Source: an uncultured Candidatus Saccharibacteria bacterium
GTDB taxonomy: Bacteria; Patescibacteriota; UBA1384; CAILIB01
Length of the DNA stretch: 64,000 bases
Assembly: GCA_964593885.1 (NCBI GenBank)
Contig: CAZQKK010000001.1
Span: 169,929 to 233,928, forward strand
Reading direction: 5' to 3'
The notes below the pieces were generated by a model. That model was not told the origin of the DNA. It did not search any database and was given only the letters and a program-made list of their open reading frames with translations. The position numbers and the translations under genes are program-made. Below, one piece after another: positions 1-19,350 of this stretch (position 1 is the first letter of the stretch; every line of letters starts with the position of its first letter).

Positions 1-254
<254 letters not shown>

Positions 255-279
255 CACGTATTAGCTCAAAGGAAGGGAT

Positions 280-816: not shown

Positions 817-1333
817 CCTTGCTCAAGAGCTTACCGGAAGCTTCATCAAGGCCGAACAGCTAGACCTCCTCTACCTCTCCATCATCAGCCTCTTGGACAT
901 GGTGAAGGACGGCGAGATTGACCTTGTCCTGGATCAAGATGGCAAGAGCGTCAAGCAGAAACGCCTGTTCATAGACAAGCTGGTAGATGGCATCCACTCC
1001 CCCGAACTCGCTGAACTCCTCCGCCAGCAACCCCTCGAGTTCTTCTACGAGAAGGACTTTGGACCCTTCTTAGAACAGCTCAAGAAAGAGGCTGATCAGT
1101 TTGAAATTGTGAGAATTACCGTCGCCCTCGAGTTTAAAGAAGCTGACCTGCGAGACATGACAGCTTTCCTCAGCGAAAAACTTGGGAAACCAACCGTGCT
1201 CAGTATCAAGGTAGACAGGAACCTCTTTGGCGGAGCAATAGTCCAACATGGTAGCTACCAGAGCGATTTTAGCCTCCACACCCAGCTTGATATTTTCAGG
1301 TCACGCTGGCACAAAGCGGTAGTAGCTCAGTAG
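809..1333 (+). CDS. atpH: ATP synthase F1 delta subunit (OSCP)
   Basis: Size and operon position fit, with a C-terminal ...LFGGAIVQHGSYQSDFSL motif resembling the delta consensus. Its end overlaps the atpF stop and the atpA start. Confidence 0.7.
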   Translation: MSSLAQELTGSFIKAEQLDLLYLSIISLLDMVKDGEIDLVLDQDGKSVKQKRLFIDKLVDGIHSPELAELLRQQPLEFFYEKDFGPFLEQLKKEADQFEIVRITVALEFKEADLRDMTAFLSEKLGKPTVLSIKVDRNLFGGAIVQHGSYQSDFSLHTQLDIFRSRWHKAVVAQ

Positions 1334-1335
1334 CC

Positions 1336-3066
1336 ATGCCAGTGCCACCAAAAGCAAAGCCCCTGAAGGCTAAACCTGCTGCCCCAAAGCGCGTCAACCC
1401 GGCAATCGCCATTACCGAGGATCTCAAGAGTAGCCTCCCAGAGCACCGCTCTGCCCCGGTAGTTGAGGAGATTGGCCAGGTAGTCTACATCGGTGACGGA
1501 ATCTGTAAGATTAGCGGACTTCCTTCGGTGAGAATGGAGGATATCGTTCAAATTGAGCCTGAAGAGGGCGACCCTATTCCAGCCCTAGTACTCGGTATGA
1601 GCGAGACGCTCATTGAGGCGGTAGTTCTCACTGACTACACCAAGATTCGGCAGGGTAACACCGTAAGGTCTAAGGGAGATGTCCTCACCATTGCTGGGGG
1701 CGAAGGAATGCTCGGGCGTATCGTCACCCCACTTGGAGAACCGCTAGATGGCAAAGGCCCCATCAACAGCCACACCCAGTACCCCGTTGAGCGACAGGCT
1801 CCAGGAGTTGCTAAACGCGCTCCCGTTGCAGACCAGTTTGAGTGTGGAGTTCTCGTGGTAGACACCCTCGTTCCACTTGGACAGGGTCAACGTGAGCTAG
1901 TGATTGGCGATAGAAAGTCTGGAAAAACCAGACTCATGGCAAACTTCATCATCAACCAGAAGGGTAAGGGGGTGTACTGCGTCTACGTTGCGATTGGCGC
2001 CCAGAAGGCAAAGATTCGTTCGCTCCAAGATATGCTGGTGAAAGCCGGGGCTATGGAATACACCTGCATCGTCATGGGTGGATCAGACTACCCACCTTCC
2101 CTCAACTACATCGCTCCCTACGCCGGGACCGCCATTGCTGAGAGCTTCATGTACGACGGCAAGCACGCCATCATCATCTACGACGACCTCTCTCGCCACG
2201 CTAAGGCCTACAGGCAAATGTCTCTCCTCCTCAAGCGCTCCCCTGGTCGTGATGCCTACCCAGGAGACATCTTCTACCTCCACTCACGCCTCCTTGAGAG
2301 GTCGGCTAAGCTGCACCCAAAGCTTGGTGGTGGCTCACTGACAGGATTCCCGATGGCCGAAACTCAGAACGGTGATAACTCTGAGTACATCGTGACCAAC
2401 TTGATGTCGATTACCGACGGCCACATCTACCTGGACGTTAACCTGATGCACGAAGGTGTGCTGCCAGCTGTTAACTCAGGATCCTCGGTATCACGCATTG
2501 GTGGAGGCGTGCAGCCACCGTGTCTACGTAAGACTGGTGAGCTGGCATCGTCCCAGATGGCGAGGTTTAACGAGGTTAAGTCATTTGAAACGCTCAACAC
2601 CGAGATTAACGAGGAAACTGAGCGTGAAATTAAACGTGGTAAACGGCTCCTCGTTATCTTTGGCCAGGACAGCAAGCTAGCACTTAGTAACGATGAGAAA
2701 ACTCTCCTGATGTACCTAGTCGTAACCGGCATGTCAGACAACGTTGAGGTGACAGATCTCAAGGTGGTCCGTGACGAACTCATCCCTTTCTACCGGGCAG
2801 GCTCATACACCGAGTACAAAGAGAAGTCTACCACTGAGAAAGACCTCAAAGCCCTAGACCCTTACATCAGAACTATCGTCACCGACTACCTGAAAACCTG
2901 TGAAGCCCCAACAGCCCGCTACCTCATTGAATCAATGGAGCAGCAGGCCGACGCTCTCCCAATCGTTCCCGATCCTGCCGCAGTAGCTGAAGCTGAGAAG
3001 CAGGCTGAGAAAGATGCCGCCGATGCCAAGAAAGCTGAGGAGAAACCAGCTGAAGAAAAGAAGTAG
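1336..3066 (+). CDS. atpA: ATP synthase F1 alpha subunit with N- and C-terminal low-complexity extensions
   Basis: P-loop GDRKSGKT and alpha-family core. 576 aa against a typical length near 510. K/P-rich N-terminal tail and K/E/A-rich C-terminal tail. Confidence 0.95.
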   Translation: MPVPPKAKPLKAKPAAPKRVNPAIAITEDLKSSLPEHRSAPVVEEIGQVVYIGDGICKISGLPSVRMEDIVQIEPEEGDPIPALVLGMSETLIEAVVLTDYTKIRQGNTVRSKGDVLTIAGGEGMLGRIVTPLGEPLDGKGPINSHTQYPVERQAPGVAKRAPVADQFECGVLVVDTLVPLGQGQRELVIGDRKSGKTRLMANFIINQKGKGVYCVYVAIGAQKAKIRSLQDMLVKAGAMEYTCIVMGGSDYPPSLNYIAPYAGTAIAESFMYDGKHAIIIYDDLSRHAKAYRQMSLLLKRSPGRDAYPGDIFYLHSRLLERSAKLHPKLGGGSLTGFPMAETQNGDNSEYIVTNLMSITDGHIYLDVNLMHEGVLPAVNSGSSVSRIGGGVQPPCLRKTGELASSQMARFNEVKSFETLNTEINEETEREIKRGKRLLVIFGQDSKLALSNDEKTLLMYLVVTGMSDNVEVTDLKVVRDELIPFYRAGSYTEYKEKSTTEKDLKALDPYIRTIVTDYLKTCEAPTARYLIESMEQQADALPIVPDPAAVAEAEKQAEKDAADAKKAEEKPAEEKK

Positions 3067-3069
3067 TAT

Positions 3070-3954
3070 ATGTCTACACTCAACGAGGTAAAGGAACAGA
3101 TGGTGGTAGTAAAGTCTGTTGGAGACTTTACTAACGCCCTCCAGCAAATTGCCACCATGAGAATGATGAAGCTTCGCGGAAAGGTGCTCCAGAGTAGACC
3201 TTTCGTGGAGGCAGCAACCAGCATCCTCAAGGAACTTCTGTCTATTAGGAATAGCCTGGACAGTGTCACCCTTATGAAACAGGATAAGAAGGGTAAAGGA
3301 GGTACTCAGGTGAAGGTTGAGACGCCTGTGTTTAACAAGCGCCGAGCAGTGATTGTAGTCACCTCAAACCAGGGTCTTTCAGGCCAGTACAACATTGAAA
3401 TCTACCGGAAGCTGGAAAAAGTGATGGCTGATGAGGCTTCTGCTGACTACTTCGTGATTGGTAAGAAAGGTCAAGAGTACTTTGCTTCAAACCGTAAGAT
3501 TAAGGTAGAAAACTTCCCCTACGAGGTAAAAGATAACTTCACCATTGAGGATCTCAAGCGCTTGATTGGGATGTTTGACTACTACGGCCACGTCACCCTC
3601 ATCTACTCACGTTTCATCAACACAGCTACCCGCGACGTAGTTGCAATTTCGATCATGAACCCCGTGCTTGAAGAGAGCGAAAAGGATAAGGAACAACCTG
3701 GAAAGTTCATCTTTGAACCTGAGCTCACCGAGCTCATTGAGGGAGTTTCCAAGAAGCTCCGTGCCGCCCTCTTCCAGCAGCAGATCTTTGATGCCCGTCT
3801 CTCCCAGTTCTCAGCTCAGATGGTGGGAATGAAAACTGCCTCAGACAACGCAAACAACCTCATCACAGACCTGAGGCTTGAGTACAACAAGGCAAGACGT
3901 AAGATGATCGATAAGAAGATTGGCGAGGTTTTCGCAGGAAGTTCCCTATGGTAG
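3070..3954 (+). CDS. atpG: ATP synthase F1 gamma subunit
   Basis: The N-terminus ...QQIATMRMMKLRGKVLQSRPF matches the gamma consensus, and the gene sits between alpha and beta. Confidence 0.9.
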   Translation: MSTLNEVKEQMVVVKSVGDFTNALQQIATMRMMKLRGKVLQSRPFVEAATSILKELLSIRNSLDSVTLMKQDKKGKGGTQVKVETPVFNKRRAVIVVTSNQGLSGQYNIEIYRKLEKVMADEASADYFVIGKKGQEYFASNRKIKVENFPYEVKDNFTIEDLKRLIGMFDYYGHVTLIYSRFINTATRDVVAISIMNPVLEESEKDKEQPGKFIFEPELTELIEGVSKKLRAALFQQQIFDARLSQFSAQMVGMKTASDNANNLITDLRLEYNKARRKMIDKKIGEVFAGSSLW

Positions 3955-4151
3955 CCAAGCAGAAGAGAAACCCCAAACACCTCTCCTACCTCATGTCGGG
4001 AACTGGCATGATTGTCTACTGGTGGGGCGTCTGGGGTATCCTAGAGCACTTTCTCCTCCCCGAACACCAGCTCATCAGCTACATCATTGGGATTAGTGCC
4101 GGCCTATCGCTCCTCTACCTGAACGATAAGAGCTTCCGAGAGCTTGGCTGA
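3948..4151 (+). CDS. small 2-TM membrane protein (67 aa) inserted between atpG and atpD
   Basis: The ORF exactly fills the 232-bp atpG-atpD gap. AGGAAG sits 6 nt upstream of the ATG. Two hydrophobic helices (IVYWWGVWGIL, ISYIIGISAGLSLLYL). Confidence 0.4.
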   Translation: MVAKQKRNPKHLSYLMSGTGMIVYWWGVWGILEHFLLPEHQLISYIIGISAGLSLLYLNDKSFRELG

Positions 4152-4179
4152 CGGAACCACCCCACATCACGTACAATAG

Positions 4180-5598
<1,419 letters not shown>

Positions 5599-5601
5599 CC
5601 T

Positions 5602-5841
5602 ATGGCACTCCAGGTAACCGTCATCAACCCTGACGAAGTCCTCTTTGAGGGTGAGGTGGAGTACATCTTAGCTCCCACCCCAAAGGGAACAGTGGGTATC
5701 TTACCTAATCATACCCCGATGTTTGCCGAGCTCAGGCCTGGTGAGGTAATCCTCCATGGAACCGAGGAGAAAAAATACACCATTGATGCGGGCCTCCTGA
5801 AAGTACGGGCTGACGAGGTGACCATTCTCATTGGATTGTAA
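5602..5841 (+). CDS. atpC: ATP synthase F1 epsilon subunit, short form (beta-sandwich domain only)
   Basis: 79 aa, ...VINPDEVLFEGEVEYILAPTPKGTVGILPNHTPMFAEL... The C-terminal helical hairpin is absent. Confidence 0.8.
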   Translation: MALQVTVINPDEVLFEGEVEYILAPTPKGTVGILPNHTPMFAELRPGEVILHGTEEKKYTIDAGLLKVRADEVTILIGL

Positions 5842-5858
5842 AAGCTTTGTATACCCTC

Positions 5859-5882
5859 GAGACTCCCATGAGTCTCTTTTTT
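5859..5882 (+). terminator. intrinsic terminator after the atp operon
   Basis: Stem gagactc / loop ccat / stem gagtctc, followed by tttttt. Confidence 0.6.
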
Positions 5883-6036
5883 GTAGGCTTCCAACTCTTT
5901 TGGATACCTCGCACTTCAATGTATATCTGGCAAAAGTGCGTCTCACCCAGTCTTTCTGGTTTCGGCTTCCAGATAGCAGAATTTCATACACCATCGTACG
6001 TTTAGGTTTTGCAACCTGACCTACACTGTTGACACC

Positions 6037-6066
6037 TATAAGCAAGCTCCCGTTTAATGGTTGTGT
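6037..6066 (+). promoter_or_regulatory. candidate sigma70-like promoter (TTGACA-N18-TTTAAT)
   Basis: This is the only good -35/-10 pair in the 270-bp intergenic region upstream of the 6161 ORF. Confidence 0.25.
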
Positions 6067-6160
6067 ATCTGTAATCTTTACAACTCGAACACCCAACTTC
6101 CCAACCTTTCCACCATTTCACCTTTTATTTGATCCCCTTTATCCGTAACTACCTGTCTCT

Positions 6161-7315
6161 ATGACAAACTTTCGTAAGGTAGTAAGCACGTTACTCTCAG
6201 TGAGTACCGCCCTTACCCTCACCGGCTTCAATTTGGCTGGTACCGCACAAGGTGCCCAGTTGAAAGAAGCGTCAGTATCCCTCGCGGACCCACGTCCAAG
6301 CACTAGTACTTCGCACACAATCACGTTTAAGATTGCAACAACAAACAACGTAGGAAGCCTACAGTTTGTCTACGCAAACACCGCTTCTGGTTCAGGTCTG
6401 CCAACTGGTCTTACCACCAACGCAAACACCACCATTACGACGTTCACCACACCTGCAAACGATGCAGCAAACTGGACCCGTACTAACCCTGCAAACGGCA
6501 CAATGCGTTTCTTCCGTTCTTCAGCTACCTCAGCTACCGCTAACGATACCTGGATTGTTACACTCCCAGCTATCACCAACAACAGCCAATCATCAGCTTG
6601 TGACGCTGTCTCAAACTCAGACTCCTGCTGGGTACAGATCACCACTTACTCAGATACTGGTTGGGCAACCCCAGTAGACAGTACCACCGCTACCTACACC
6701 ATTACAGACTCTGTAACAGTTACGGCTACGGTAGACCCAATCCTTACCTTCACCGTTGCAGCCGTTACCTCTGGTAACCTTGCATCAAACGACACAAATG
6801 CTGGTACTGGTACCACAGTAACTTCTACTGCTACCACCCTGCCATTTGGTAACGTTACCGTAGGTACTCCTAAGATGGCTCAGCACCAGCTGAACACCCA
6901 GACTAACGCTAACAACGGTTACACCATCTACGGTAAGTTCATCACTGCCGGAAATGAAGTAATGGTTGGAAACGCAGTCTCAACAAACAACATCGACAGG
7001 TTCACCGCTTCTTCCGCTACCTGGTCAAGTCCACAGACCTGGGCAGCACCAACTGGTTCAACTGCTAACGTAAACTCTGCTTGGCTTGGTGCTCGTACAA
7101 CCGACACCGACGTTGCAGGATTCAACGTTTCTGACAAGTACGGTCCTCCAGATATTCTTTCAGACTCTGGTTCAGGTAAGGCTGTCATGAGTTCAACAGG
7201 TCCTGATAACGGTTCAACCGCTGTCTACGTTACCTACAAGATTCAGGCAAACGCCTTCCAACCTGCTGACCTTTACACAGGAACATGGGTGTACAACGTT
7301 CTCGCTAGCTACTAG
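6161..7315 (+). CDS. secreted Thr/Ser/Asn-rich protein (signal peptide, low complexity), possible abundant surface or S-layer-like protein
   Basis: N-terminal signal peptide (..LAGTAQGA). Strongly biased T/S/N/A composition. Stand-alone transcription unit with its own terminator. Confidence 0.6.
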   Translation: MTNFRKVVSTLLSVSTALTLTGFNLAGTAQGAQLKEASVSLADPRPSTSTSHTITFKIATTNNVGSLQFVYANTASGSGLPTGLTTNANTTITTFTTPANDAANWTRTNPANGTMRFFRSSATSATANDTWIVTLPAITNNSQSSACDAVSNSDSCWVQITTYSDTGWATPVDSTTATYTITDSVTVTATVDPILTFTVAAVTSGNLASNDTNAGTGTTVTSTATTLPFGNVTVGTPKMAQHQLNTQTNANNGYTIYGKFITAGNEVMVGNAVSTNNIDRFTASSATWSSPQTWAAPTGSTANVNSAWLGARTTDTDVAGFNVSDKYGPPDILSDSGSGKAVMSSTGPDNGSTAVYVTYKIQANAFQPADLYTGTWVYNVLASY

Positions 7316-7333
7316 TTAGAACCTCTTGTCAGA

Positions 7334-7365
7334 AAAGCGCTCCCTCACGGGGGCGCTTTTCGTTT
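7334..7365 (+). terminator. intrinsic terminator
   Basis: aaagcgctccc-tcac-gggggcgcttt stem-loop followed by T-rich sequence. Confidence 0.55.
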
Positions 7366-7384
7366 AGTATATTTCGCCTATACT

Positions 7385-8158
7385 GTGCTCATGGAAGCAA
7401 GAACAAAGTCTATTCTCACCATTTCCCTAGGCGGGTCACTGCTCTTGGCGTTAATCCTTAGCTCTTGGCTCCCCCGATCATGCCCACTTCTCAGAGACCT
7501 GATAACCAACTGCCCTAAGCAAGTTGACCCAACATCACTGCTTTCCCCTGAGATTAAAGAGCTTAACCGTATCCCTCACCAGGATATCTTTAAAGAAACG
7601 GTAGACTTTTCAGTCCCTGCCCAGCCAAATCGTGAAGCTACCCAGGTGAGATTTACCTACCGCGGGAATTTAGAGAAACAGTTTGTCTACCTCAAAGTCA
7701 TAGAGGCAACTGGTGAGCGCGTTATCACCGTGGTTAACCACCCCCTCCTCTTCAAGCTCAACTGGCCGCGCATCTCCACCACACTCCCCAACGCTACCAT
7801 CTACCAGCGCAATCTCACCTACGCCTCTATTGATGAACTCAAGGCAAACCTCCCTAGCAAGGCTTTCTTTGCGGTAGATAGCGTCATTGCTAAAGAGTGG
7901 AACCTTAGCCCTGAGCAGTACACCCTCTTAGACTCACTCACCAGCCTTGATGGCATTGAAACCATAGCTACTAGCTACATCCCCCCAGAGCCTGACGGTG
8001 AGTGGTACAAGTTCTCCCAAACCTTCGATCTCACCAATGCATTTGTTGACGGAATTACCGGAAACCTCAAGTGGTTCCTCAAACTCCCCGGCAATAACGC
8101 AGAGGGTGAGCCATTCAGAATGAGCACCGTGAACGTCGGTTTTACCTCCAAGAAGTAA
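7385..8158 (+). CDS. hypothetical secreted / membrane-anchored protein
   Basis: N-terminal hydrophobic signal/anchor. No recognisable catalytic motifs. Confidence 0.5.
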   Translation: MLMEARTKSILTISLGGSLLLALILSSWLPRSCPLLRDLITNCPKQVDPTSLLSPEIKELNRIPHQDIFKETVDFSVPAQPNREATQVRFTYRGNLEKQFVYLKVIEATGERVITVVNHPLLFKLNWPRISTTLPNATIYQRNLTYASIDELKANLPSKAFFAVDSVIAKEWNLSPEQYTLLDSLTSLDGIETIATSYIPPEPDGEWYKFSQTFDLTNAFVDGITGNLKWFLKLPGNNAEGEPFRMSTVNVGFTSKK

Positions 8159-8223
8159 AAAAGCGCTTGCAAGCTCAAAAATTTCTGCTGATAATGGAAT
8201 TACCCAGTTCGTAGCACCCACCA

Positions 8224-9180
8224 ATGTTTCGCCTTACTCACTCTGTGGTTGGAAAGCTCCTCACCGTCTTTGCCGTAGCACTCACCCTCTTGGCGGTACC
8301 CAGTAAAACAAGCTACGCGGATACCGTTTCGGTTATCCCCCCGCGTTTTGAGCTCCGTGGTAATCCAGGCGACATCATCCAGGAAAAGCTCCGGGTCAGA
8401 AATGACAGCCAACAGAGCATTACCTACGCAATCCAGGTTGAAGACTTCCAGGCTAAGGATGATCAAGGGGGTGTAGACCTCATTGAAGGAGACGATGCCA
8501 CTGCAAAGGGTAGCTACAAGCTTGCTAGTTGGATTACTACAGACCCAGACAAAATTACCATTGCTCCAGGGGATGAAAAGGTTATCACCATCAACATCAA
8601 GATTCCAAAGACAGCAGAGCCAGGAGGTCACTTTGCCTCAGTACTCATCAAGCGTTCTGGAGGCGATGTCACCGGAGGTGCCTCTGTTGATAGCCGTATT
8701 GGAAGCCTCATTCTCCTCCGTGTCTCGGGAGCCATCACCGAGAGCGCGGCAGTAGACAGCTTCAAGGCAGAAGAGAGTATCTCACAGTACGGACCAGTCA
8801 CCTTTGCCCTAAGGACTAAGAATGATGGTAACGTACACGTCCAACCAAAGGGAACCATTGTCATCTACAACACCTTTGGAAAAGAGGTAACCAAGATCCC
8901 TCTCACCCAGGCAAACGTACTTCCAGGTTCAGCCCGTATCGTAAAGACAATCTGGGACGAAAAGAACCTCATCGGTAGGTACACCGCAACCCTTCAGGCT
9001 ACCTACGAGCAGAACACCCAACCAGGAATTGAGCCAAAGACCCTCACTGCCTCAACTACCTTCATCGTATTCCCACTCTGGCTGCTCTGGACCATTATTG
9101 GTCTCATCATCCTCATCTTCCTCCTCATTACTCAGAGAAAAGCTATCAAGAAGGCGCTCAACCGCCTCACGGCTGACTAG
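8224..9180 (+). CDS. cell-surface protein: signal peptide, beta-rich ectodomain, C-terminal TM anchor and short basic tail
   Basis: Signal peptide ..SYADTVS. The C-terminal ...FIVFPLWLLWTIIGLIILIFLLITQRKAIKK is a stop-transfer anchor. The architecture recalls DUF916/DUF3324-type (CscA-like) surface proteins, recalled from memory and not verified. Confidence 0.55.
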   Translation: MFRLTHSVVGKLLTVFAVALTLLAVPSKTSYADTVSVIPPRFELRGNPGDIIQEKLRVRNDSQQSITYAIQVEDFQAKDDQGGVDLIEGDDATAKGSYKLASWITTDPDKITIAPGDEKVITINIKIPKTAEPGGHFASVLIKRSGGDVTGGASVDSRIGSLILLRVSGAITESAAVDSFKAEESISQYGPVTFALRTKNDGNVHVQPKGTIVIYNTFGKEVTKIPLTQANVLPGSARIVKTIWDEKNLIGRYTATLQATYEQNTQPGIEPKTLTASTTFIVFPLWLLWTIIGLIILIFLLITQRKAIKKALNRLTAD

Positions 9181-9192
9181 CCCCGCAGCAGA

Positions 9193-10449
9193 ATGAGAGG
9201 GGTCCCACTGCTGCTTCGCCGCTTGATTGCCGGTAGCCTGATCACCCTGGCTACACTCTTCCCTATACTCCAACCACCGCAGGTTACCCACGCTGTGGGA
9301 GGGCTGGACCTGGCACGTGACTACATTGGAAGCCTCATTCCTGACGCTCCAAACATCTACCACGAGCTCTACTTCGTGCTACCAACAGGTTCAGAGCAGA
9401 TTAAGCCTGATGACTGGATTCTCATAGAGTTCCCCAACTACCAGCTGGTAGACATGGATGAAGCCATCTTCATTGGGAGCTTCAACACCCCAACAGTAAG
9501 CGTTGTAGGTACCACGGTAAGGATTACTGGACTAGCACTGCTGCCGGGAACCGGGGTAACCATCGCCAACGTAAAAGCCACCAACCCACCGGCTTTCGTG
9601 AGCACGGAAGTTAGGATAAAAGTTGCCGAAGATAACACTGGTTCGGTGGTGAGAAACCAAGCTACCATTATTCCTTCTGATACCAGGAGCGTGGTTAACG
9701 CAAGTGCTACCATTGAAACCCCCCTATCCTCACTCTCAATCAGTGGCTACACGGTTCCCTCAGCTTTCGTTACGGCTACAGAAAACGGAGGTGTAGCTGG
9801 TACCACCACCTCAAACGTAAACGGCTTCTTTACCTTCGTTATTACTGCCGCAGACCCTGGAAGTCATACGTACCTTATCTTTTCCACCGACCAAAATAAC
9901 CGCTCAACTGCACAGACCGCCGTCAACGTCTTCCTCATCGCCAATACCCTCACCACTGTTTCGCAAATCCTCCTCTCCTCTACCCTCGCCATTGATAAGG
10001 CTGAGATTGATCCTGGTGAGGTAATAACCTTCTACGGTACAGCAAAGCCAAACTCTCAGATTAACATCTTTGTTGAGGGTCCTCTCAGAACCTACTTCTC
10101 TAACTCCAACGCCGCAGGTGATTGGACCTTCACCCTCAGTGCCCTGGAAACCCAGGGGTATACCCCCGGTCAGTACCAGGTGTATACCATTGTGCAGGAC
10201 AACATTGGTAACCAGAGTATCACCAGTAACACGCTCACCTTCAAGGTGAAAAGCCAGGACAGTAACAACCCTGATCCTCTCTGCGATATTTCACGTGGAG
10301 ACCTCAACTGTAACAGCGTCACAAACCTAGTAGACTTTTCAATCCTACTCTACCACTGGGGCACAAATCACAAAGTTGCCGATATTAACAAAGACGGTGT
10401 GGTAAGCCTGGTAGATTTCTCGGTAATGATGTTCTACTTCACCAACTAG
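9193..10449 (+). CDS. secreted protein with Ig-like repeats and a C-terminal dockerin-like module
   Basis: Signal peptide. Two Ig-like repeats. The last 55 aa, CDISRGDLNCNSVTNLVDFSILLYHWGT...ADINKDGVVSLVDFSVMMFYF, are two calcium-binding D-x-N-x-D-G-x-V-x-x-x-D-F repeats typical of type I dockerin. Confidence 0.65.
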   Translation: MRGVPLLLRRLIAGSLITLATLFPILQPPQVTHAVGGLDLARDYIGSLIPDAPNIYHELYFVLPTGSEQIKPDDWILIEFPNYQLVDMDEAIFIGSFNTPTVSVVGTTVRITGLALLPGTGVTIANVKATNPPAFVSTEVRIKVAEDNTGSVVRNQATIIPSDTRSVVNASATIETPLSSLSISGYTVPSAFVTATENGGVAGTTTSNVNGFFTFVITAADPGSHTYLIFSTDQNNRSTAQTAVNVFLIANTLTTVSQILLSSTLAIDKAEIDPGEVITFYGTAKPNSQINIFVEGPLRTYFSNSNAAGDWTFTLSALETQGYTPGQYQVYTIVQDNIGNQSITSNTLTFKVKSQDSNNPDPLCDISRGDLNCNSVTNLVDFSILLYHWGTNHKVADINKDGVVSLVDFSVMMFYFTN

Positions 10450-10451
10450 AC

Positions 10452-11027
10452 ATGCAACCATCAGTCCTCTCTAAGCTCCCGAAAACACTCCTCTCATGGT
10501 GGAAACACCTGAGAAAGAAACACCGCCTGGTGATCTATGCACTGATCATTGCCCTAGTAACCCTCAGTGCCCCGAGTGTGATTCGTAAGGCTACAGGAGT
10601 GCTCCCAAGAACTGCCGAGTTCTACTTCCTGGATACAGGCACAAGCCTAATTACTGGACAGAGTTTCCCGGTTGAGCTCAGGGTAAAAACTGGTGAAATG
10701 CCCATTAACGCCATGGGCTTCACCATGAAGTTTGACCCCAATAAGATTGAGGTTCAGCGCATGACCACCGACAAATCTTTCTGCACCTTGTTCACCGATA
10801 ACATCTTTGACAACCAGCGCGGCACCGTCACCGTTTCGTGTGGGAGGCCAACACCTGGATTTACCGGAGACTCAATTGCCACGAGGGTAACCTTTAGAGC
10901 CAAGGTACCGGGAACTGCCACCATCTCCATTGAAGAAAGCAGCAGCCTCCTTTTGGCAAATGACGGAAAAGGAAGTAACATTAGTAAGGAAACTCCCAAG
11001 CTAACTCTGTCTATTCAACAGTTCTAG
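10452..11027 (+). CDS. type II membrane-anchored cohesin-like module protein (paralog 1)
   Basis: Basic N-terminus plus one TM helix. The ectodomain ...FPVELRVKTGEMPINAMGFTMKFDPNKIEVQRM...RGTVTVSCGRPTPGFTGDSIATRVTFRAKVPGTATISIE resembles cohesin-type beta-sandwich modules. Confidence 0.6.
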   Translation: MQPSVLSKLPKTLLSWWKHLRKKHRLVIYALIIALVTLSAPSVIRKATGVLPRTAEFYFLDTGTSLITGQSFPVELRVKTGEMPINAMGFTMKFDPNKIEVQRMTTDKSFCTLFTDNIFDNQRGTVTVSCGRPTPGFTGDSIATRVTFRAKVPGTATISIEESSSLLLANDGKGSNISKETPKLTLSIQQF

Positions 11028-11032
11028 TAGCG

Positions 11033-12178
11033 ATGCCAACGACCGTCTCCCGCATTACCGCTCTCGTAGCTAGCATTGCTCTCGTCTTTTTGGTTATTGT
11101 CTCGCCTAAGGTGAGCCGGGTTAGCGCTGCTGCCGATATGGCGGTGAGTACCAACAACACCGTCTACAGCTACGGTGATGTTGTTACCGTCACCATTAGT
11201 GTGAACACTGGTGGACAGTCAGCAAATGCCTTCCAGGGAAAGTTTACCTACCCTGCCAGTCTGTTTGAAGGAGTAAGTGGATCATTTAGCGGCTCAATCT
11301 GTTCGCTCCCTATCCAGGTTCCAGAACCCGTGGGTGGTTCTGCAAACTTCTCATGTGGGAAACCTTCTGGTTTTAATGGCACAGGAACAGTGGCAAGGGT
11401 TACCCTCAGGGTTATTGCTCAAGGTAACGCTGCTCTCCGAATTGATAACTGTGAGGTACTTGCAAACGATGGTCTCGGGACAAACATTACCGGTGGCTGT
11501 TCAGATAAGAACGTCGAAACCCTCGGGCCAAGTCCAAGCCCAACTATTGACCCTAACTATGTCCCAAGTCCTACCCCTACCCCAAAACCAAAGAAGTCAC
11601 CTACCCCCACTCCTTCTCCTACCATCAAACCTTCAAGTAGTGTTACCATCGCTATTGGTGGTCAGGTAACCCCAACCCCAACCATTACCCCACCACCAGT
11701 TGCAGAGCTAGGCGCCACAGAAACTCCTGCCCCTACCGATGAAGCCACAGCAGAGCCCGAGCAAGACCCCCAGAAGCGAACGGTTGGACAGGCAATTCAA
11801 GACATCTTCAGTGCTGGAAGGAATATCGGGAAGCTCGGTGGTAACCTCACCGGGGTAGTTGCCCTCCTCATTGCCGTTGTACCTTTCCTAGCGCTACTCC
11901 TAGCCATTCTCTACCTCGCCTACAGGCTCTACATGATGGAGCGAAGACGTAAGCGAACCCTGGATAGGCTCTTCGAGATGGAGCTCGCTGAACTGGCAGC
12001 CCTTGAAGGAAAGCTAGATCTCCTGGGCGAGAAGGGATCAAAAGGCAAGGCACAGTACCAAGAAGAGTTCAAACGAGCAAAAGAGAACATCCTCAGACAG
12101 CTCAAACCAGACTTTGCCAAACCAGTTGACGGCCCAAAGAAGAGCAAAGAAGAACCAAAGGAAAGTGAGAAGAAGTAG
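11033..12178 (+). CDS. cohesin-like module protein (paralog 2) with P/T-rich linker, C-terminal TM anchor and K/E-rich cytoplasmic tail
   Basis: Signal peptide. Module VTVTISVNTGGQSANAFQGKFTYPASLFEGV...ANFSCGKPSGFNGTGTVARVTLRVIAQGNAALRI. PSPTPTPKPK linker. TM VVALLIAVVPFLALLLAILYLAY followed by RRRKR and a coiled-coil tail. Confidence 0.6.
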   Translation: MPTTVSRITALVASIALVFLVIVSPKVSRVSAAADMAVSTNNTVYSYGDVVTVTISVNTGGQSANAFQGKFTYPASLFEGVSGSFSGSICSLPIQVPEPVGGSANFSCGKPSGFNGTGTVARVTLRVIAQGNAALRIDNCEVLANDGLGTNITGGCSDKNVETLGPSPSPTIDPNYVPSPTPTPKPKKSPTPTPSPTIKPSSSVTIAIGGQVTPTPTITPPPVAELGATETPAPTDEATAEPEQDPQKRTVGQAIQDIFSAGRNIGKLGGNLTGVVALLIAVVPFLALLLAILYLAYRLYMMERRRKRTLDRLFEMELAELAALEGKLDLLGEKGSKGKAQYQEEFKRAKENILRQLKPDFAKPVDGPKKSKEEPKESEKK

Positions 12179-12180
12179 CC

Positions 12181-13389
12181 ATGAGCCCACTCAAAAAAAC
12201 ACCAGCGAGACGCACACCAAGGCCAGCCAGGGAAACTCCTCCACAGGCTGAGGTTGCTTTCGTTTCACAACCTGAGGGCTCTCCAGATAGCAGTTTCCGC
12301 CTCCTTGATGAGCTCAGGCGTGAGCTGGAGAAGGGTAACCACCTCAACGAGCTTCGCGCCGACATCACCCGCTTAGAGGGCGAGAAGCGAAACCTCGAGC
12401 AGCAGGTTAGACACCTCGAGAGTAGGCTCCAGGCACAGCACGGCCAAGCCTCGGCAACCCTTGAGGCACTCAAGAACACCATCCGTGGACAGGTGCAGAG
12501 CCTGGACCAGCAGCTCCAAGTTTTCTCCCTAGACACCTCCCATAGCATTGAAGGACTCCTGGCAGTCCTCCACAGCGCAAGCATCCCAAATCCAGACCTC
12601 AATACCATCCCGGTGCACCACCCAGGTATCCAGCCTGAAAGCGTTGTGAGGCCCACTGCCTATGCACCTACAGCAGTTACCCACACCATCACCCCGCCTA
12701 TCCAACCTGAGCCAGTAGAGACCTTCTTTGAGCCTCTCATTGCAGAGCCTGCCCACCAAACGCACGCTCCAAACCGAAGGTTTAGGAAGATTGCCATCAG
12801 AACCTTCTTCTCTCTCCTTGGTATTGGTCTCATTGGTGGCGGCTACCTTTTCCTTCGCCCAACTACCAAAATCTACCAGGATGGCGAAGTTGCTGGCGCT
12901 GCAACAGGTGCACAAGCAACCCCTGAGCCAAGCACAAGCCCAGACCCGTACGCTGCATCGTTTGCAGAGGTTCCCTTTGAGAAAACCGAATGGGAGCTGG
13001 TAACCGATGCAGACTTCGGCATCGCCGTGCAGTTCCCATCAAATGCCTCTACCAAGGTGAAGGTAATTGGAGGTAACAACCTCTGGTTTGTCAGGAAGAG
13101 CACCTACCTCATGCGCTTCAGTAGAATTGCCACCGATGAAACGCTCGAGCAATGGTGGACCAAGAATTCCTCAACCTACACCGACCAGACCAAGGCAACC
13201 AAGATTACCTACAAGGGCAAGCCAGCAATGTACCTAGAATCCCTCGAGAAAACGCCAACTTCTGGGAGTAGCTACATCATCAAGCACGCTGGCAACATCC
13301 TCACCGTTTGGGTGAAGGATGAGCCCACTACCACCGACGACGGCAAACGCATCTCAAAGATGGTTGAGAGCCTTACCTTTACCAACTAG
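12181..13389 (+). CDS. bitopic membrane protein: cytoplasmic coiled coil, P-rich segment, TM helix, extracytoplasmic domain
   Basis: Heptad-like N-terminus (LRRELEKGNHLNELRADITRLEGEKRNLEQQVRHLESRLQ). TM IAIRTFFSLLGIGLIGGGYLFL. About 190-aa C-terminal domain. Confidence 0.5.
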   Translation: MSPLKKTPARRTPRPARETPPQAEVAFVSQPEGSPDSSFRLLDELRRELEKGNHLNELRADITRLEGEKRNLEQQVRHLESRLQAQHGQASATLEALKNTIRGQVQSLDQQLQVFSLDTSHSIEGLLAVLHSASIPNPDLNTIPVHHPGIQPESVVRPTAYAPTAVTHTITPPIQPEPVETFFEPLIAEPAHQTHAPNRRFRKIAIRTFFSLLGIGLIGGGYLFLRPTTKIYQDGEVAGAATGAQATPEPSTSPDPYAASFAEVPFEKTEWELVTDADFGIAVQFPSNASTKVKVIGGNNLWFVRKSTYLMRFSRIATDETLEQWWTKNSSTYTDQTKATKITYKGKPAMYLESLEKTPTSGSSYIIKHAGNILTVWVKDEPTTTDDGKRISKMVESLTFTN

Positions 13390-13401
13390 CAGAAAGGGAA
13401 G

Positions 13402-14607
13402 ATGGGGGCACTTCTCACCGGCTGGATACCTTGGGTAACTACCCCTCTCGCACTCTTTGCGGGGGCAGTTTTCCTGTACCTTAGCTGGTGCTCAGTTACC
13501 CACTGGTTAGCAAAGCGACAGCTCTTCCACCTGCTGCTCGCGGTACTCCTCCTTACCGCCGCTCCCCTCATATCTCTCACCATCTACATGAGCAACTGGG
13601 GCACCTTGCTTGGAATAGGGGTAGTGGGCTTTGCCAGTTTTGCCGTGAGAGATCTCATTGCAGCCAAGACAACCTACCACATCAGTTTTGTGAGAGGTCT
13701 CATCATTACAGCAGCCGTATGGATTGGACTCACCAGTCTCTTTTCGTACCAGCAGTACCAGAACTACCTCCTTCGGACCGATGAGAGGCTGAGTACCGCA
13801 ATAGAGGTGGTGAGTTCCCGTGAGCAGAAGGCTCGTGAGTTAGCTGCCAAGCTGAGTCAGGAAGACTTTGTCCTCCGCCTTGCACAAGGAGGATCACAAG
13901 CTGCTGCCATCACCGAGCTCCAGCGGTACATGGTGAGCAACCAACTCCAATTTGTTACCGTGGCTTCCACCCAGGGAACTGTACTGCTGAGAGCGCAGGA
14001 ATCAACACGGAGTGGTGATAACATCCTCGACTTCTCACCATGGGTACTCCCCGCCCTCGGCGGTGAAGTGGTGAGTGGAAAAGCTTACGATGAGCGAGGG
14101 CTGCCTACGGTTTCCGCAGCCGTTCCTGTTAGACGCGACACCGTCCCTGTAGGAGTAGTAATCCTTGGCTTCAACCTCAACCAGAACTTCGCCAGCGACA
14201 TCAGGAACCTTGGCCCTGGAGGAGTGGCCATTGGAACCGTTAGGGGTGTTAAGAGCCACAGTACTGGGAGCACCATAGAGAGTACCATTTACAGCTCGGC
14301 GGCTCTGGATGAAATTGTCAGGAAAGAGCTTGCCACTGTTGTCCAGGGTAAGAAACGTGAGAGCTTCAGCGCCCGACTCTACCTTGATAACGAGCCACAC
14401 TTGGTAAAAGCCACGGTACTGAGCACCCTAGTAACCAGCCAGCCAGTTGCAATCATTACCCTTGAAGTAGACAACAAGCTTCCCGTTAACCCGTACGCGC
14501 TCTCCCTCGTGATTATCATCCTGGGCACCGTACTCTTCAACCTCAAGATCTTCATCTCATTTGCTTCACAGCTCCCAACCATTACCCCAAGGAGGCGCCG
14601 TGGATAG
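13402..14607 (+). CDS. polytopic membrane protein with large extracytoplasmic domain (sensor-like)
   Basis: Four to five N-terminal TM helices, a domain of about 270 aa, and a C-terminal TM (LSLVIIILGTVLFNL). Confidence 0.5.
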   Translation: MGALLTGWIPWVTTPLALFAGAVFLYLSWCSVTHWLAKRQLFHLLLAVLLLTAAPLISLTIYMSNWGTLLGIGVVGFASFAVRDLIAAKTTYHISFVRGLIITAAVWIGLTSLFSYQQYQNYLLRTDERLSTAIEVVSSREQKARELAAKLSQEDFVLRLAQGGSQAAAITELQRYMVSNQLQFVTVASTQGTVLLRAQESTRSGDNILDFSPWVLPALGGEVVSGKAYDERGLPTVSAAVPVRRDTVPVGVVILGFNLNQNFASDIRNLGPGGVAIGTVRGVKSHSTGSTIESTIYSSAALDEIVRKELATVVQGKKRESFSARLYLDNEPHLVKATVLSTLVTSQPVAIITLEVDNKLPVNPYALSLVIIILGTVLFNLKIFISFASQLPTITPRRRRG

Positions 14608-15433
14608 GCTACGCACCATTACCACCCTCAGTTTCTTGCTCATTGGGGCCTTAGGGCTTCCCTACCTTGCTGAGCACAAAGATACCACCCTTAGCGTCGC
14701 AAGCACTGCTACGGTTGATCCTAAGCAGGCTGGGCGAACTGCCATCCTCTCACTGTTGCCACCTGTAGGTAAGCTAAACCCTACTAGCAACCAGAGCATC
14801 GCGGTGAAAATAGATACCGGTGGTAGCCTCGTCAAAGAAGTTGCCTTCAAAATCAGTTTCCCACCCGACCACGTAAAGGTTACCGATGTTTCTTTCGGTG
14901 ATTCATTCTGTACCATCTCACCTGTCTACAGCATCAATAACACGCTTGGGACGGTGACCCTCAGCTGCAAGTCAAATAGCCCTGGCCTCCTGGGTCAGCT
15001 TGGCACCGTTGCCACCCTCATCACTACCCCACTCCAGGCTGGCGGGGCAGCGTTCCAGTTTGACCAAACCGCTTCATCGGTAACCGCCCGGGTGAGCGAG
15101 AAAGATGTGCTCTCGTACGCAGTTGATAGAATTGTCACGTACGGAGACAGCCCTGATGACCACATTGTCGTAACCTCGGTAAGCCACCCAACAGGTAGCA
15201 GCTGCTCGTACAAATCCACCGCTGAGCTCGCCTGGCTCAAGCGAGAAGGTACCACCACCTTTGAGTACGGCTGGAACGAAGACCCTGCTGCTGAACCTGG
15301 TACCAGCACCACCTCAACAAGCATCTCTCTCCCAACAAAACCTGGGACCACCCAGTTCTTTACCGTGAGGAGCATTGGTGAGAAAGGGGTAAAGGGCAAG
15401 ATCACTAGCTACAGGGTAGTCAGTTGCCGCTAA
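14600..15433 (+). CDS. secreted cohesin-like module protein (paralog 3). The ORF-track ATG lies at 14561, and the GTG at 14600 reduces overlap with the upstream gene.
   Basis: Signal-like N-terminus LRTITTLSFLLIGALGLPYLA. Module SIAVKIDTGGSLVKEVAFKISFPPDHVKVTDVSFGDSFCTISP...LGTVTLSCKSNSPGLLGQLGTVATLIT. Confidence 0.55.
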   Translation: MDRLRTITTLSFLLIGALGLPYLAEHKDTTLSVASTATVDPKQAGRTAILSLLPPVGKLNPTSNQSIAVKIDTGGSLVKEVAFKISFPPDHVKVTDVSFGDSFCTISPVYSINNTLGTVTLSCKSNSPGLLGQLGTVATLITTPLQAGGAAFQFDQTASSVTARVSEKDVLSYAVDRIVTYGDSPDDHIVVTSVSHPTGSSCSYKSTAELAWLKREGTTTFEYGWNEDPAAEPGTSTTSTSISLPTKPGTTQFFTVRSIGEKGVKGKITSYRVVSCR

Positions 15434-15478
15434 ATCTGGTATCGTCACAGGTGTGATTTTGGTAACTCTCGTAGGAAT

Positions 15479-15553
15479 GGCAGGGTAGCTCAGGGGTAGA
15501 GCAGGAGACTCATAAGCTCTTGGTCGCGGGTTCAATTCCCGCCCCTGCCACCA
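15479..15553 (+). tRNA. tRNA with CAT anticodon, closest by eye to tRNA-Ile2 (lysidine, k2CAU) rather than elongator Met
   Basis: 75-nt cloverleaf: acceptor GGCAGGG/CCCTGCC, T-arm GCGGG-TTCAATT-CCCGC, anticodon loop CTCATAA, 3' CCA encoded. Anticodon arm and body are nearly identical to the E. coli ileX pattern (GAGCAGGNGACTCATAA...TTGGTCGC). Confidence 0.8.
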
Positions 15554-15556
15554 ATA

Positions 15557-15590
15557 TAAAAAGGCATACGAACGTATGCCTTTTTATATT
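15557..15590. terminator. bidirectional intrinsic terminator
   Basis: Stem aaaaaggcatacg / loop aa / stem cgtatgccttttt, flanked by an A-tract and a T-tract. Convergent genes end on both sides. Confidence 0.6.
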
Positions 15591-15634
15591 GCGCTAAAGA
15601 GGAAGGGAATTGAACGAGGAAAGGGTCGGAAAAC

Positions 15635-16105
15635 CTACGCTGCTGCAAGCTGCTGTCTCACCCGCCGGTGCTGCTCTCGCTCATGCAGCTTCTCTAGCTG
15701 GTAGCGCTCCAGGTGTTCACCACCAGGCATATCCTTGCTCACCTCAACACCATCGCCGCCTTTTTCAAGTGAGTGGTAGGAAATAATCATCGCTCCTACC
15801 CAGAATGGGTTCTGGAGAAGGGTGAGAAACTGAGAGCTCACACTCCCACCAAGCGTTTGTTGGAGTGCCTGGAGTTTCTCAGCACTCAAGACCCCCTGCT
15901 TCCCACTTGCTAGACCAGTGAGCACCACGTCCTCTTGGTTGCGCGCTTCTGTCTCGCTCTCATTCCAGGCATCAACCATCTTGAGAAAGTCCTTTCGCCA
16001 GGAGAGGTATTCTTCAAGAGGATCAGTCTCAGCTTCTTGGTAGTACGGCTCAGGCTCCGCGGCTGATTCGTATCGCTCTACAGAAAGCGTAAGGAACTCA
16101 CTCAC
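15635..16105 (-). CDS. hypothetical acidic protein
   Basis: ORF of 156 aa with no recognisable motifs. It is terminated by the bidirectional terminator. Confidence 0.4.
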   Translation of the reverse strand: MSEFLTLSVERYESAAEPEPYYQEAETDPLEEYLSWRKDFLKMVDAWNESETEARNQEDVVLTGLASGKQGVLSAEKLQALQQTLGGSVSSQFLTLLQNPFWVGAMIISYHSLEKGGDGVEVSKDMPGGEHLERYQLEKLHEREQHRRVRQQLAAA

Positions 16106-16147
16106 CTGGTATACTGACGGTACATCATACGTCTAGCATACCTCACC

Positions 16148-16642
16148 ATGCAGATTGCTGTCTTCTCAGACACCCACGACAACCTTGAAACCACTAAAGC
16201 TGCACTGGAAATGGTGAAGTCTCGTGGCATCACCCAAGGTATCCACCTGGGCGATTTTACCTCTCCTCCTACCATCATGCTCCTCGCAGAGTCGGGGCTT
16301 ACCTGGACGTGCGTCTGGGGAAACTGTGACGGCGACAAGTTGCTTGCCTACCGCAGAACTGAAGCTCTCGGCACCATGGACTTTGCCAACGGCGACTTTA
16401 GGGAGCACGAAGTTGAAGGTAAGAAACTCTTCCTCACCCACTACCCAGAGATTGCACGTATCGCTGCACTTTCCGGACAGTTTGATGCGGTATTCCACGG
16501 CCACAACCACCAGGCCTCAACTGAAACCATTGGGAAAACCCTCCTCGCAAACCCTGGTGAGCTCACGGGAATAAGGTTTGGGAAGCCAAGTTTTGGCATC
16601 TATAATCCCGCTGAAAACAGCCTAGAAACAATCTGGCTGTAG
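16148..16642 (+). CDS. metallophosphoesterase, YfcE/MJ0936-like
   Basis: Motifs VFSDTHDN, GDFTSP, GNCDGD and HGHNH are spaced as in calcineurin-like phosphoesterases. Confidence 0.8.
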   Translation: MQIAVFSDTHDNLETTKAALEMVKSRGITQGIHLGDFTSPPTIMLLAESGLTWTCVWGNCDGDKLLAYRRTEALGTMDFANGDFREHEVEGKKLFLTHYPEIARIAALSGQFDAVFHGHNHQASTETIGKTLLANPGELTGIRFGKPSFGIYNPAENSLETIWL

Positions 16643-16683
16643 CAAGGCTTCCCACAGCCTCAATAATCATCTATTGTGCGAAT

Positions 16684-17811
16684 ATGAGCACAGGATTTCG
16701 TGGCTTTTTTCGTATTCTCTGGCTAGGCTCCCTCTACAGCTTCGCCCTCATTGGTTTTGTCCTAACCAGTGGCTTTGTTGCGGTTAAGTTTGGCTGGAGC
16801 AACACAGCCGGAACTGTTGATACCGAGACCGAGACCTTCAATGAAACTGCCACAAAGGTTGCAAACCTTGCCAGCGCTGCAACGCCTGATGTTGTCGTAC
16901 TTGAAGACCAGCAGAATCCCACCGAGAAGCACGAGCTCTGTAAGGTAGCGATTATTGGAAAGGTTTCTGGTAAAACTGCCCACACCATCGCAACCACCTA
17001 CCAAACCCAAAACAGCCTCCCCCTCCTCATCAACATGGTGCAGGCTGCAGTCTTCAGGATGCCTGAGGATCGGCAGGCTACGCTTCGCTCGTGCGAGACC
17101 AGCACTGAACCTGTGGTACTTTCTGAACTCGTCTCAAGCCTGAACCCAGAAGGGCCATCCATCTTCGCGTGGCAGAACAGCACCCAGTGGCAGACTATCG
17201 AGAAGGCCATCCTCAAGGATGCCAAGGTTATTGCTTCTGCAGCATCCACCGCAGAGGTAAGCGAGAGATCTGTCTTGAGCGTCTGCCTCGTTGAGCAGCT
17301 GAGGCTCTACTTCACCCAGCGAGAGCTCTTTGAGAAGGTGTTTGCTCCCCTCTCCATTCTCAGTAGTGCTACCAAGAACGCTTGGGGAGTGATGGCCATC
17401 AAAGAAGAGACTGCTATCGCCACCGAAGAGCACCTCAAGGACACAAGCTCACCTTTCTACCTTGGGAGCGATAAAGCCAACCTCCTCAACTTCAGCACCC
17501 AAGATGTTGCCAGTGAAAGGTACAACCGCCTGACCAACGGGAGAGACCACAAGTACTCCTACCTCTACGGCTCGCTTTTCATTGCCCAACTACAAGCCCA
17601 GTGGGAGCGAGCTGGCCACCCTATTGCTAACCGCCCCGAGATCATGGCTACCCTCTTCAACCTAGGGTTCAAGAAGTCTAAACCAAAGGCTGACCCACAG
17701 GTTGGCGGTGCTGCTCTCACCATTGCCGATACCCAGTACAGTTTTGGCGGCCTCGCGTACGAGATCTACTACTCCGGAGTTCTCCAAGATACCTTCGCCT
17801 TTGACAAGTAG
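16684..17811 (+). CDS. hypothetical membrane-anchored protein
   Basis: N-terminal TM (ILWLGSLYSFALIGFVLTSGFVAV). No confident domain call. Confidence 0.45.
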   Translation: MSTGFRGFFRILWLGSLYSFALIGFVLTSGFVAVKFGWSNTAGTVDTETETFNETATKVANLASAATPDVVVLEDQQNPTEKHELCKVAIIGKVSGKTAHTIATTYQTQNSLPLLINMVQAAVFRMPEDRQATLRSCETSTEPVVLSELVSSLNPEGPSIFAWQNSTQWQTIEKAILKDAKVIASAASTAEVSERSVLSVCLVEQLRLYFTQRELFEKVFAPLSILSSATKNAWGVMAIKEETAIATEEHLKDTSSPFYLGSDKANLLNFSTQDVASERYNRLTNGRDHKYSYLYGSLFIAQLQAQWERAGHPIANRPEIMATLFNLGFKKSKPKADPQVGGAALTIADTQYSFGGLAYEIYYSGVLQDTFAFDK

Positions 17812-17812
17812 G

Positions 17813-19126: not shown

Positions 19127-19235
19127 GGTATTTTCGGTACTTGTACGGTACTACCCACGTTACACTGTTTTACCGTGGATACGTAGGGGTTGGGAGTTGA
19201 ACGTCAGGATGTCCTCAGCGTAAAGCTTCGGAACA

Positions 19236-19345: not shown

Positions 19346-19350
19346 AGTCA

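Follow-up and report, generated by a model that had tools for sequence, protein, structure and literature searches.

We analysed a window of 64,000 nucleotides (nt) of genomic DNA from an uncultured Candidatus Saccharibacteria bacterium and found that the protein encoded by ORF 9193 (open reading frames, ORFs, are named here by their first nucleotide) ends in a genuine dockerin, a duplicated Ca2+-loop and helix (F-hand) module at residues 364-418. The same cluster encodes three cohesin proteins that are all membrane-anchored, as seen by hydropathy and inspection of the translations. Considering the sequences and the gene order, the dockerin most likely plugs the immunoglobulin (Ig)-repeat protein that carries it onto these cohesins encoded nearby, in what would be an operon for surface display or adhesion.

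The dockerin module of ORF 9193

The module lies at 10282..10446 of the forward strand, at the C-terminus of the 418-amino-acid (aa) product of ORF 9193..10449, where the translation reads CDISRGDLNCNSVTNLVDFSILLYHWGTNHKVADINKDGVVSLVDFSVMMFYFTN and is followed by the TAG stop codon at 10447-10449. A preliminary description of the window had quoted this peptide at 10282, and it was reproduced exactly, together with its two loop and helix segments of the D-x-N-x-D-G type and the linker between them. The first Ca loop (D370-D381, DLNCNSVTNLVD, 10300..10335) and the second (D397-D408, DINKDGVVSLVD, 10381..10416) are both 12 residues long, carry D, N or S at positions 1, 3, 5, 9 and 12, and are each followed by a hydrophobic helix (LVDFSILLY after loop 1 and LVDFSVMMFY after loop 2). 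The two tandem segments of a 12-residue Ca loop plus helix by which a dockerin is recognized are found in the sequence as well as in the structural model, and the loops are predicted to bind Ca2+. By inspection, the two repeats are identical at 8 of 22 positions and similar at 15 of 22, a likeness that would agree with a dual binding mode. All orthologues keep Cys364 and Cys373, of which the latter occupies loop position 4 (Gly in the aligned canonical dockerins), and the two residues may form a disulfide.

The module is the only one of its kind in the window, as the same description had stated. A loose loop pattern had just four matches among the 82,979 residues of the six-frame translation, and the one pair of loops spaced 20-45 residues apart is that of residues 364-418 (about 0.005 such pairs would be expected by chance). 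Moreover, a hidden Markov model (HMM) built from the C-terminus of the protein family gave 123.5 bits for the module of ORF 9193 as its sole match in the window, the next best score being 3.3 bits.

We also asked to which family the module belongs. Pfam Dockerin_1 (PF00404) matched residues 369-415 with an E-value of 1.1e-4 and 22.7 bits (gathering cut-off 22.9), and all 40 of the 40 orthologues scanned were matched at E <= 0.01, the best at 3e-10. A database search with the dockerin protein returned 231 homologues, the full-length orthologues being about 415 aa long and coming from metagenome bins of Patescibacteria, the candidate phyla radiation (CPR). No record of the exact window protein was found. 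The dockerin is the most conserved part of the protein among orthologues and is nearly invariant in the 40. Its identity as a dockerin is not new, as several orthologues are already titled "dockerin type I domain-containing protein" in NCBI and UniRef and non-cellulosomal cohesins and dockerins are known. Membership in the NCBIfam GC-type dockerin was rejected, with a score of 13.7 bits under a cut-off of 29.

Structural comparisons pointed to the same fold. When the profile of the last 63 residues was compared with the PDB, the best 15 matches were dockerins, led by DocCel5 of A. cellulolyticus (5nrm_B, 4.6e-7) and including the CelS dockerin of C. thermocellum (1daq/2mte, 1.7e-4). The AlphaFold2 model of the same 63 residues had a mean predicted local distance difference test (pLDDT) score of 94, with helices at residues 379-387 and 406-415, and all 30 of its best Foldseek matches in the PDB were dockerins, the top one being 2y3n_B (TM-score 0.75/0.78, root-mean-square deviation 1.4 A, 37% identity). 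The Pfam search and the structure comparison had been named beforehand as the tests that could refute a dockerin-like module; results showed an HMM match and a predicted structure in which both loop-helix units were modelled, confirming the module. That the segment is a chance or generic EF-hand-like Ca2+-binding motif is extremely improbable: a weak Pfam EF-hand_8 match (E 0.032) and the departure of loop 1 from the D-x-N-x-D-G consensus (N-S at positions 5-6) would fit such a motif, but EF-hand proteins appeared in the same Foldseek list only at E > 3 and TM-scores <= 0.30, behind the 30 dockerins, and neither the chance expectation for a loop pair nor the near invariance of the module in the 40 orthologues agrees with it.

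The rest of the protein consists of a sequence that resembles a Sec signal peptide, a head domain and a stalk of Ig-like domains. Its description as an Ig-repeat protein was borne out by Pfam Big_13 at residues 279-352 (33.7 bits, above the cut-off of 27) and by a weak Big_6 match at residues 181-244 (19.1 bits), found respectively in 30 and 35 of the 40 orthologues, and the Ig region matched by PDB profile the Ig domain of a biofilm-associated surface protein (7dm0). The head domain (residues ~34-175) gave no Pfam or PDB sequence match. By hhalign, it is a homologue of the N-terminal domain in proteins of the ORF 6161 family (probability 95.8%, E 6.8e-9, 157 columns); in loci of the Parcubacteria type, the dockerin protein likewise opens with a 6161-type domain. 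An LPGTG string is present inside the head domain at 9541..9555 (residues 117-121), and the orthologues conserve its P and G. Since it is not C-terminal and lacks a hydrophobic tail, a role as sortase signal is improbable.

Cohesin genes and conserved gene order

A cohesin-family HMM found exactly three domains in the window, in ORF 10452 (220.8 bits), ORF 11033 (81.2 bits) and ORF 14561/14600 (65.6 bits). The preliminary description had placed three cohesin-like genes directly downstream of the dockerin: the count of three holds, as does the adjacency for ORFs 10452 and 11033, while ORF 14600 lies 4.1 kb downstream, with two non-cohesin genes standing between it and the second cohesin gene. 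In the third gene, the ORF listed mechanically begins at 14561, a GTG codon at 14600 follows an AAGGAGG sequence, and the orthologues P0136 and P0137 are 277 aa long; the gene therefore probably starts at 14600. Pfam Cohesin (PF00963) scored 22.2 bits on ORF 10452 (cut-off 24.1) and gave no direct match to ORF 11033, and hhalign related the other two proteins to the cohesin-family profile at 98.2% (E 4.4e-14, ORF 11033) and 96.9% (E 1.8e-10, ORF 14600). ORF 12181 was not cohesin-like by the family HMM, and ORF 8224, considered as a hidden cohesin, was rejected with an hhalign probability of 0.6% to the cohesin profile. An internal LPRTA string is found at residue 51 of ORF 10452.

The fold was examined on the model of ORF 10452, one of the three domains. 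Compared with the PDB, the sequence profile of the cohesin family gave nothing meaningful (best E 0.15, designed Ig proteins). The AlphaFold2 model (pLDDT 93) contains a long N-terminal helix and then nine strands of at least three residues, and its best 44 Foldseek matches in the PDB were all cohesins, of types I, II and III, with E-values down to 2.7e-9. The highest TM-scores were with compact non-cellulosomal cohesins, up to 0.79 for 2vo8. An exhaustive profile search of the cohesin family collected 9,588 representatives at E <= 1e-3, and 7 of 10 relatives scanned exceeded the Pfam Cohesin cut-off (among them P0146 with 275 bits and P0148 with 124.5 bits). The best-scoring relative, P0146, comes from a metagenome and is 2,276 aa long; Pfam recognised nine cohesins in it along with Big_7 and fn3 domains, a dockerin stands at its C-terminus, and in this it resembles a scaffoldin.

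We then considered how far the arrangement is conserved. With one genome taken per GTDB species, the scan gave 348 loci encoding relatives, whose record titles name Berkelbacteria, CPR2, Microgenomates, Saccharibacteria, WWE3, Parcubacteria, Kerfeld-, Uhr-, Woese- and Woykebacteria and others; some titles name Gammaproteobacteria, Pseudomonadales or Pirellulales, labels that are unverified. Synteny was counted in 86 related loci, and the order found there is head-domain paralogue, DUF916/WxLIP-like gene (WxLIP, WxL-interacting protein), Ig-dockerin gene and cohesin gene or genes. A relative of ORF 8224 lies directly upstream of the dockerin gene on the same strand in 81/86 loci, 72/86 have between one and five cohesin genes on that strand (65 downstream, 7 upstream), and a relative of ORF 6161 occurs in 49/86. 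Where the cohesin is downstream, its domain starts less than 400 nt past the stop of the dockerin gene in 45 of the 65 loci.

Taken together, these data suggest a possible mechanism. The protein would be exported by way of its N-terminal signal peptide, its dockerin would fold around two Ca2+ ions, and it would then bind non-covalently, presumably in a Ca2+-dependent manner, to a cohesin of ORF 10452, ORF 11033 or ORF 14600, each of which may be chosen as partner. The cohesins would be held by an N-terminal transmembrane helix in ORF 10452, by a C-terminal one behind a Pro/Thr-rich spacer in ORF 11033 and by an N-terminal hydrophobic anchor in ORF 14600. The head domain would thereby be held on its Ig stalk at the cell surface, and the same operon would add the paralogue of the head domain (ORF 6161) and the DUF916/WxLIP-like membrane protein (ORF 8224).

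Several points weigh against this interpretation. The argument for the pairing of dockerin and cohesin is gene adjacency, and the DUF916-like gene is a more constant neighbour of the dockerin gene than are the cohesins. In 14/86 loci no cohesin was found in the DNA scanned; some of these lie on short contigs, but around the CPR2-type loci the 8-kb flanks are complete, and there the dockerin is fully conserved all the same. Moreover, both the window dockerin (by 0.2 bits) and ORF 10452 fall under the gathering cut-offs of their Pfam families, and for the head domain neither a fold nor a function is known, which makes the biological role a guess. An alternative is a true dockerin fold whose partner is not one of the neighbouring cohesins, be it the DUF916/WxLIP-like protein, a cohesin encoded elsewhere, a ligand on a host cell, or no partner at all if the module is a mere Ca2+-stabilised C-terminal cap. 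The CPR2-type loci, which keep the pair of DUF916-like and dockerin genes with no cohesin within 8 kb, favour such a partner, as do the higher count of the DUF916-like gene and a faint Pfam Cohesin signal in ORF 8224 (E 0.057). On the contrary, the profiles of the cohesin family and of ORF 8224 are unrelated, among the matches, all dockerin partners with a characterised structure are cohesins, and the next gene is a cohesin in most loci. We therefore regard a partner elsewhere as rather unlikely, and binding to the cohesins of the operon as the preferred explanation.

Little is known of the way in which ultra-small Patescibacteria construct their surface and hold on to hosts, and most of their envelope proteins are unannotated. 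A cohesin-dockerin pair is a known binding chemistry, and its presence in an operon of hundreds of species-level genomes raises a concrete question for in vitro work, namely whether the two proteins bind and whether they need Ca2+; the pair would also offer a handle on the unannotated head domain and on its DUF916-like partner. Within the library searched, full-text literature searches found no description of the operon, or of cohesin-dockerin or DUF916/WxL genes tied to Patescibacteria.

Other genes of the cluster and its surroundings

Features of the dockerin-cohesin cluster, with positions in the window
Feature	Position	Strand	Description
384-aa Ser/Thr-rich secreted protein	6161..7315	+	N-terminal domain common with dockerin protein
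257-aa protein	7385..8158	+	N-terminal hydrophobic anchor; fold not recognised; syntenic in 21/86 loci
318-aa DUF916/WxLIP-like protein	8224..9180	+	Signal peptide, WxLIP_PGBD, second domain, transmembrane segment at residues 285-303; ends 12 nt before dockerin gene
Dockerin protein gene, 418 aa	9193..10449	+	Signal-peptide-like residues 1-34, head ~34-175, two Ig-like domains, dockerin
Head domain	9292..9717	+	Residues ~34-175; hhalign to ORF 6161 N-terminal domain
Two Ig-like domains	9733..10248	+	Stalk; Big_6-like residues 181-244, Big_13 residues 279-352
Dockerin module	10282..10446	+	Residues 364-418; two Ca loops, helix after each; motif, Pfam, profile, AlphaFold2, Foldseek
Cohesin protein 1, 191 aa	10452..11027	+	Transmembrane helix at residues 26-44, cohesin ~54-191; starts 2 nt past stop of dockerin gene
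Cohesin protein 2, 381 aa	11033..12178	+	Signal peptide, cohesin ~34-154, Pro/Thr-rich linker, transmembrane helix 275-293, charged cytoplasmic tail
402-aa protein	12181..13389	+	Charged coiled-coil-like N-terminus, probable transmembrane segment, C-terminal domain of unrecognised fold; syntenic in 24/86 loci
401-aa multi-pass membrane protein	13402..14607	+	dCache_3-like extracellular domain; five hydrophobic segments; syntenic in close relatives
Cohesin protein 3, probably 277 aa	14600..15433	+	N-terminal hydrophobic anchor, cohesin ~14726..15076, C-terminal domain

Between 8224 and 15433, neighbouring genes lie 2-12 nt apart or share 8 nt, a spacing as in an operon. Upstream of them, a terminator-like hairpin with a 13-bp stem and 8 G-C pairs (7332..7361) directly follows ORF 6161 inside the cluster, and it would fit a high expression of this gene with partial read-through. 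Many related loci have two 6161-type genes, and some have small proteins that correspond to its N-terminal or C-terminal half alone. WxLIP_PGBD (DUF916, PF06030) was found on ORF 8224 with 33.3 bits (cut-off 27.3), and dCache_3 on ORF 13402 with 33.5 bits (cut-off 25.7). The latter gene, between cohesin genes 2 and 3, encodes no kinase or other output domain, and its counterpart in one relative matches CHASE4. Closely spaced Cys pairs occur in each predicted extracellular protein (ORFs 6161, 7385, 9193, 10452, 11033 and 14600), for example C147/C156, C33/C43, C364/C373, C111/C130 and C90/C108. Those of the dockerin and of the cohesins are invariant or nearly so within their families, and such pairs suggest disulfides.

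The F-type ATP synthase operon (280..5841) adjoins the cluster, which follows atpC here and precedes the atp genes in CPR2-type loci. The linkage was seen in only 14/86 loci, all in closer lineages (L001-L007, L018, L022, L024, L031, L033, L038 and L039), and is therefore taken to be inherited synteny. Farther away, a polysaccharide-synthesis cluster (41972..53736) includes two Polysacc_synt flippase-like genes, a UDP-GlcNAc 2-epimerase, a GT4 glycosyltransferase and two adjacent Wzy_C (O-antigen-ligase-like) genes; in close relatives, a Wzy_C gene is inside the dockerin cluster itself. In the mechanical listing, a bactofilin-domain ORF (33852..35138, reverse strand) and a ComEC-like ORF (34903..36396, forward strand) have about 235 nt in common, so that probably at least one start codon is mis-assigned. 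Across the whole window (1..64000), nearly all 2-kb bins show a negative GC skew, the cumulative skew falling steadily to -2.78, though most genes are on the forward strand.

Comparison with known cohesin-dockerin and WxL systems

Cellulosomal dockerins (Cel48S/CelS, 1daq/2mte; Xyn10B, 1ohz_B; and 2y3n_B) and the module described here have in common a duplicated 12-residue Ca loop with D or N at positions 1, 3, 5, 9 and 12, followed by a helix, and the C-terminal placement is also the same. The TM-score of the C. thermocellum Xyn10B dockerin 1ohz_B with our model was 0.54-0.59. In the type I dockerins of C. thermocellum, Ser-Thr at loop positions 10-11 and Lys/Arg at positions 17-18 are responsible for cohesin recognition. 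The window dockerin has instead L-V at positions 10-11 of both repeats and L-Y and M-F at positions 17-18, and the consensus of its orthologues is likewise hydrophobic at these places. In addition, 47 of its residues cover 54 positions of the Pfam model, its two repeats are joined by a linker 7 residues shorter than in cellulosomal dockerins (alignment to 2yik), and the best structural match, 2y3n_B, is a dockerin chain of Bacteroides cellulosolvens from an entry titled as a type II cohesin-dockerin complex. The preliminary description had seen the hallmark of type I dockerins in this module: the duplicated loop architecture stands and the subtype does not, "type I" being here the name of the Pfam family, without specific support for the subtype.

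The cargo is also different, as the window dockerin is carried by a non-enzyme and not accompanied by a scaffoldin, and it has the family-invariant Cys364/Cys373. Instead of a carbohydrate-active enzyme as cargo and a scaffoldin with many cohesins, as expected for type I, we found a protein without a catalytic domain and one cohesin per protein. Neither the dockerin protein nor the scanned window ORFs contained a glycoside hydrolase or another carbohydrate-active enzyme domain, and these ORFs encode ATP synthase, FtsH, MurJ, LepA, DnaK/DnaJ, ComEC and polysaccharide-synthesis proteins, that is, housekeeping and envelope functions; because of this, the anchoring system is non-cellulosomal. A cellulosome-like multi-enzyme complex for polysaccharide breakdown might be read from the Pfam family name, from the best PDB matches, which come from cellulosomal enzymes, and from the multi-cohesin scaffoldin-like proteins such as P0146 among the cohesin relatives. 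It is nevertheless very improbable, considering the recognition positions, the lack of enzymes and the single cohesin with its own membrane anchor in each cohesin protein. The most suitable reading of the cluster is a complex for surface display or adhesion in Patescibacteria, and not an enzyme complex. For the cohesin-dockerin field, it would represent a compact, Cys-containing clade with a hydrophobic interface, serving membrane anchoring and not enzyme assembly.

The genes upstream of the dockerin gene can be compared with the WxL/Csc clusters of Firmicutes, which combine WxL proteins, a WxLIP protein and a small LPXTG protein; it is from such clusters that the DUF916/WxLIP_PGBD family has otherwise been described. 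In Firmicutes, WxL-interacting proteins consist of two Ig-like domains (DUF916 and DUF3324) and a C-terminal transmembrane helix and are normally clustered with two WxL proteins (PMC10599100). ORF 8224 has the layout of a WxLIP, with a signal peptide, two domains and a C-terminal transmembrane segment; PF06030 passed its cut-off and the second domain was not identified as DUF3324. As a WxLIP is accompanied by two WxL proteins, so the DUF916-like gene is preceded by genes for one or two paralogous secreted proteins. When 30 members of the ORF 6161 family and 10 C-terminal halves were scanned with Pfam, no WxL domain appeared even with the threshold relaxed to E <= 10; the idea that these are WxL proteins has no sequence support from Pfam and is kept as a structural hypothesis only. 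A C-terminal LPXTG signal was found in none of the nine cluster proteins, where LPxTG-like strings are internal only (ORF 9193 and ORF 10452). Unlike in WxL/Csc clusters, the DUF916-like gene is succeeded by one whose product has a C-terminal dockerin, and the cohesin anchors come next, in the window as in the related loci scanned.

We raise as a tentative and still doubtful idea that the Patescibacteria of the scanned loci have in common a modular operon for surface assembly, with two different anchors for the display of a single type of head domain: the C-terminal half of the 6161-type protein, possibly WxL-like, would act with the DUF916/WxLIP-like protein, and the dockerin would enter membrane-bound cohesins, the cohesin-dockerin pair taking the place of the sortase/LPXTG system of Firmicutes WxL clusters. 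If so, such a two-anchor complex could help epibiotic cells to hold their hosts or to organise their envelope.

In a cultivated Saccharibacterium, structure-based annotation gave a trio of WxL-like, DUF916-like and LPXTG-protein-like genes, all non-essential there (Wang et al. 2023 supplement, PMC10633639). SEML1_0315 of the Saccharibacterium Southlakia epibionticum is an essential dockerin-domain envelope protein (PMC10633639). Like SEML1_0315, the window protein is dockerin-bearing and Ig-rich, is encoded by a Patescibacterium and would be located at the surface. However, SEML1_0315 is a stand-alone gene of 2,784 nt (~927 aa), without DUF916-like or cohesin neighbours, and was rejected as an orthologue on the grounds of its size and context.

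For the cohesin, the closest structural parallels are found outside cellulosomes. The C. perfringens cohesins 2vo8 and 2jh2 and the A. fulgidus cohesin 2xdh gave the top TM-scores to the model of ORF 10452 (0.79, 0.73 and 0.71), and 2ozn_B, from the NagJ-NagH complex of C. perfringens, was the fourth-best match of the dockerin. Peer et al. in 2009 reportedly surveyed non-cellulosomal cohesin and dockerin modules across all three domains of life. Like the modules of C. perfringens and A. fulgidus, the cohesins and the dockerin of the window stand outside cellulose degradation. Unlike those modules, their genes are neighbours in an operon, each cohesin protein carries a membrane anchor, and the arrangement is conserved across a radiation of phylum level.

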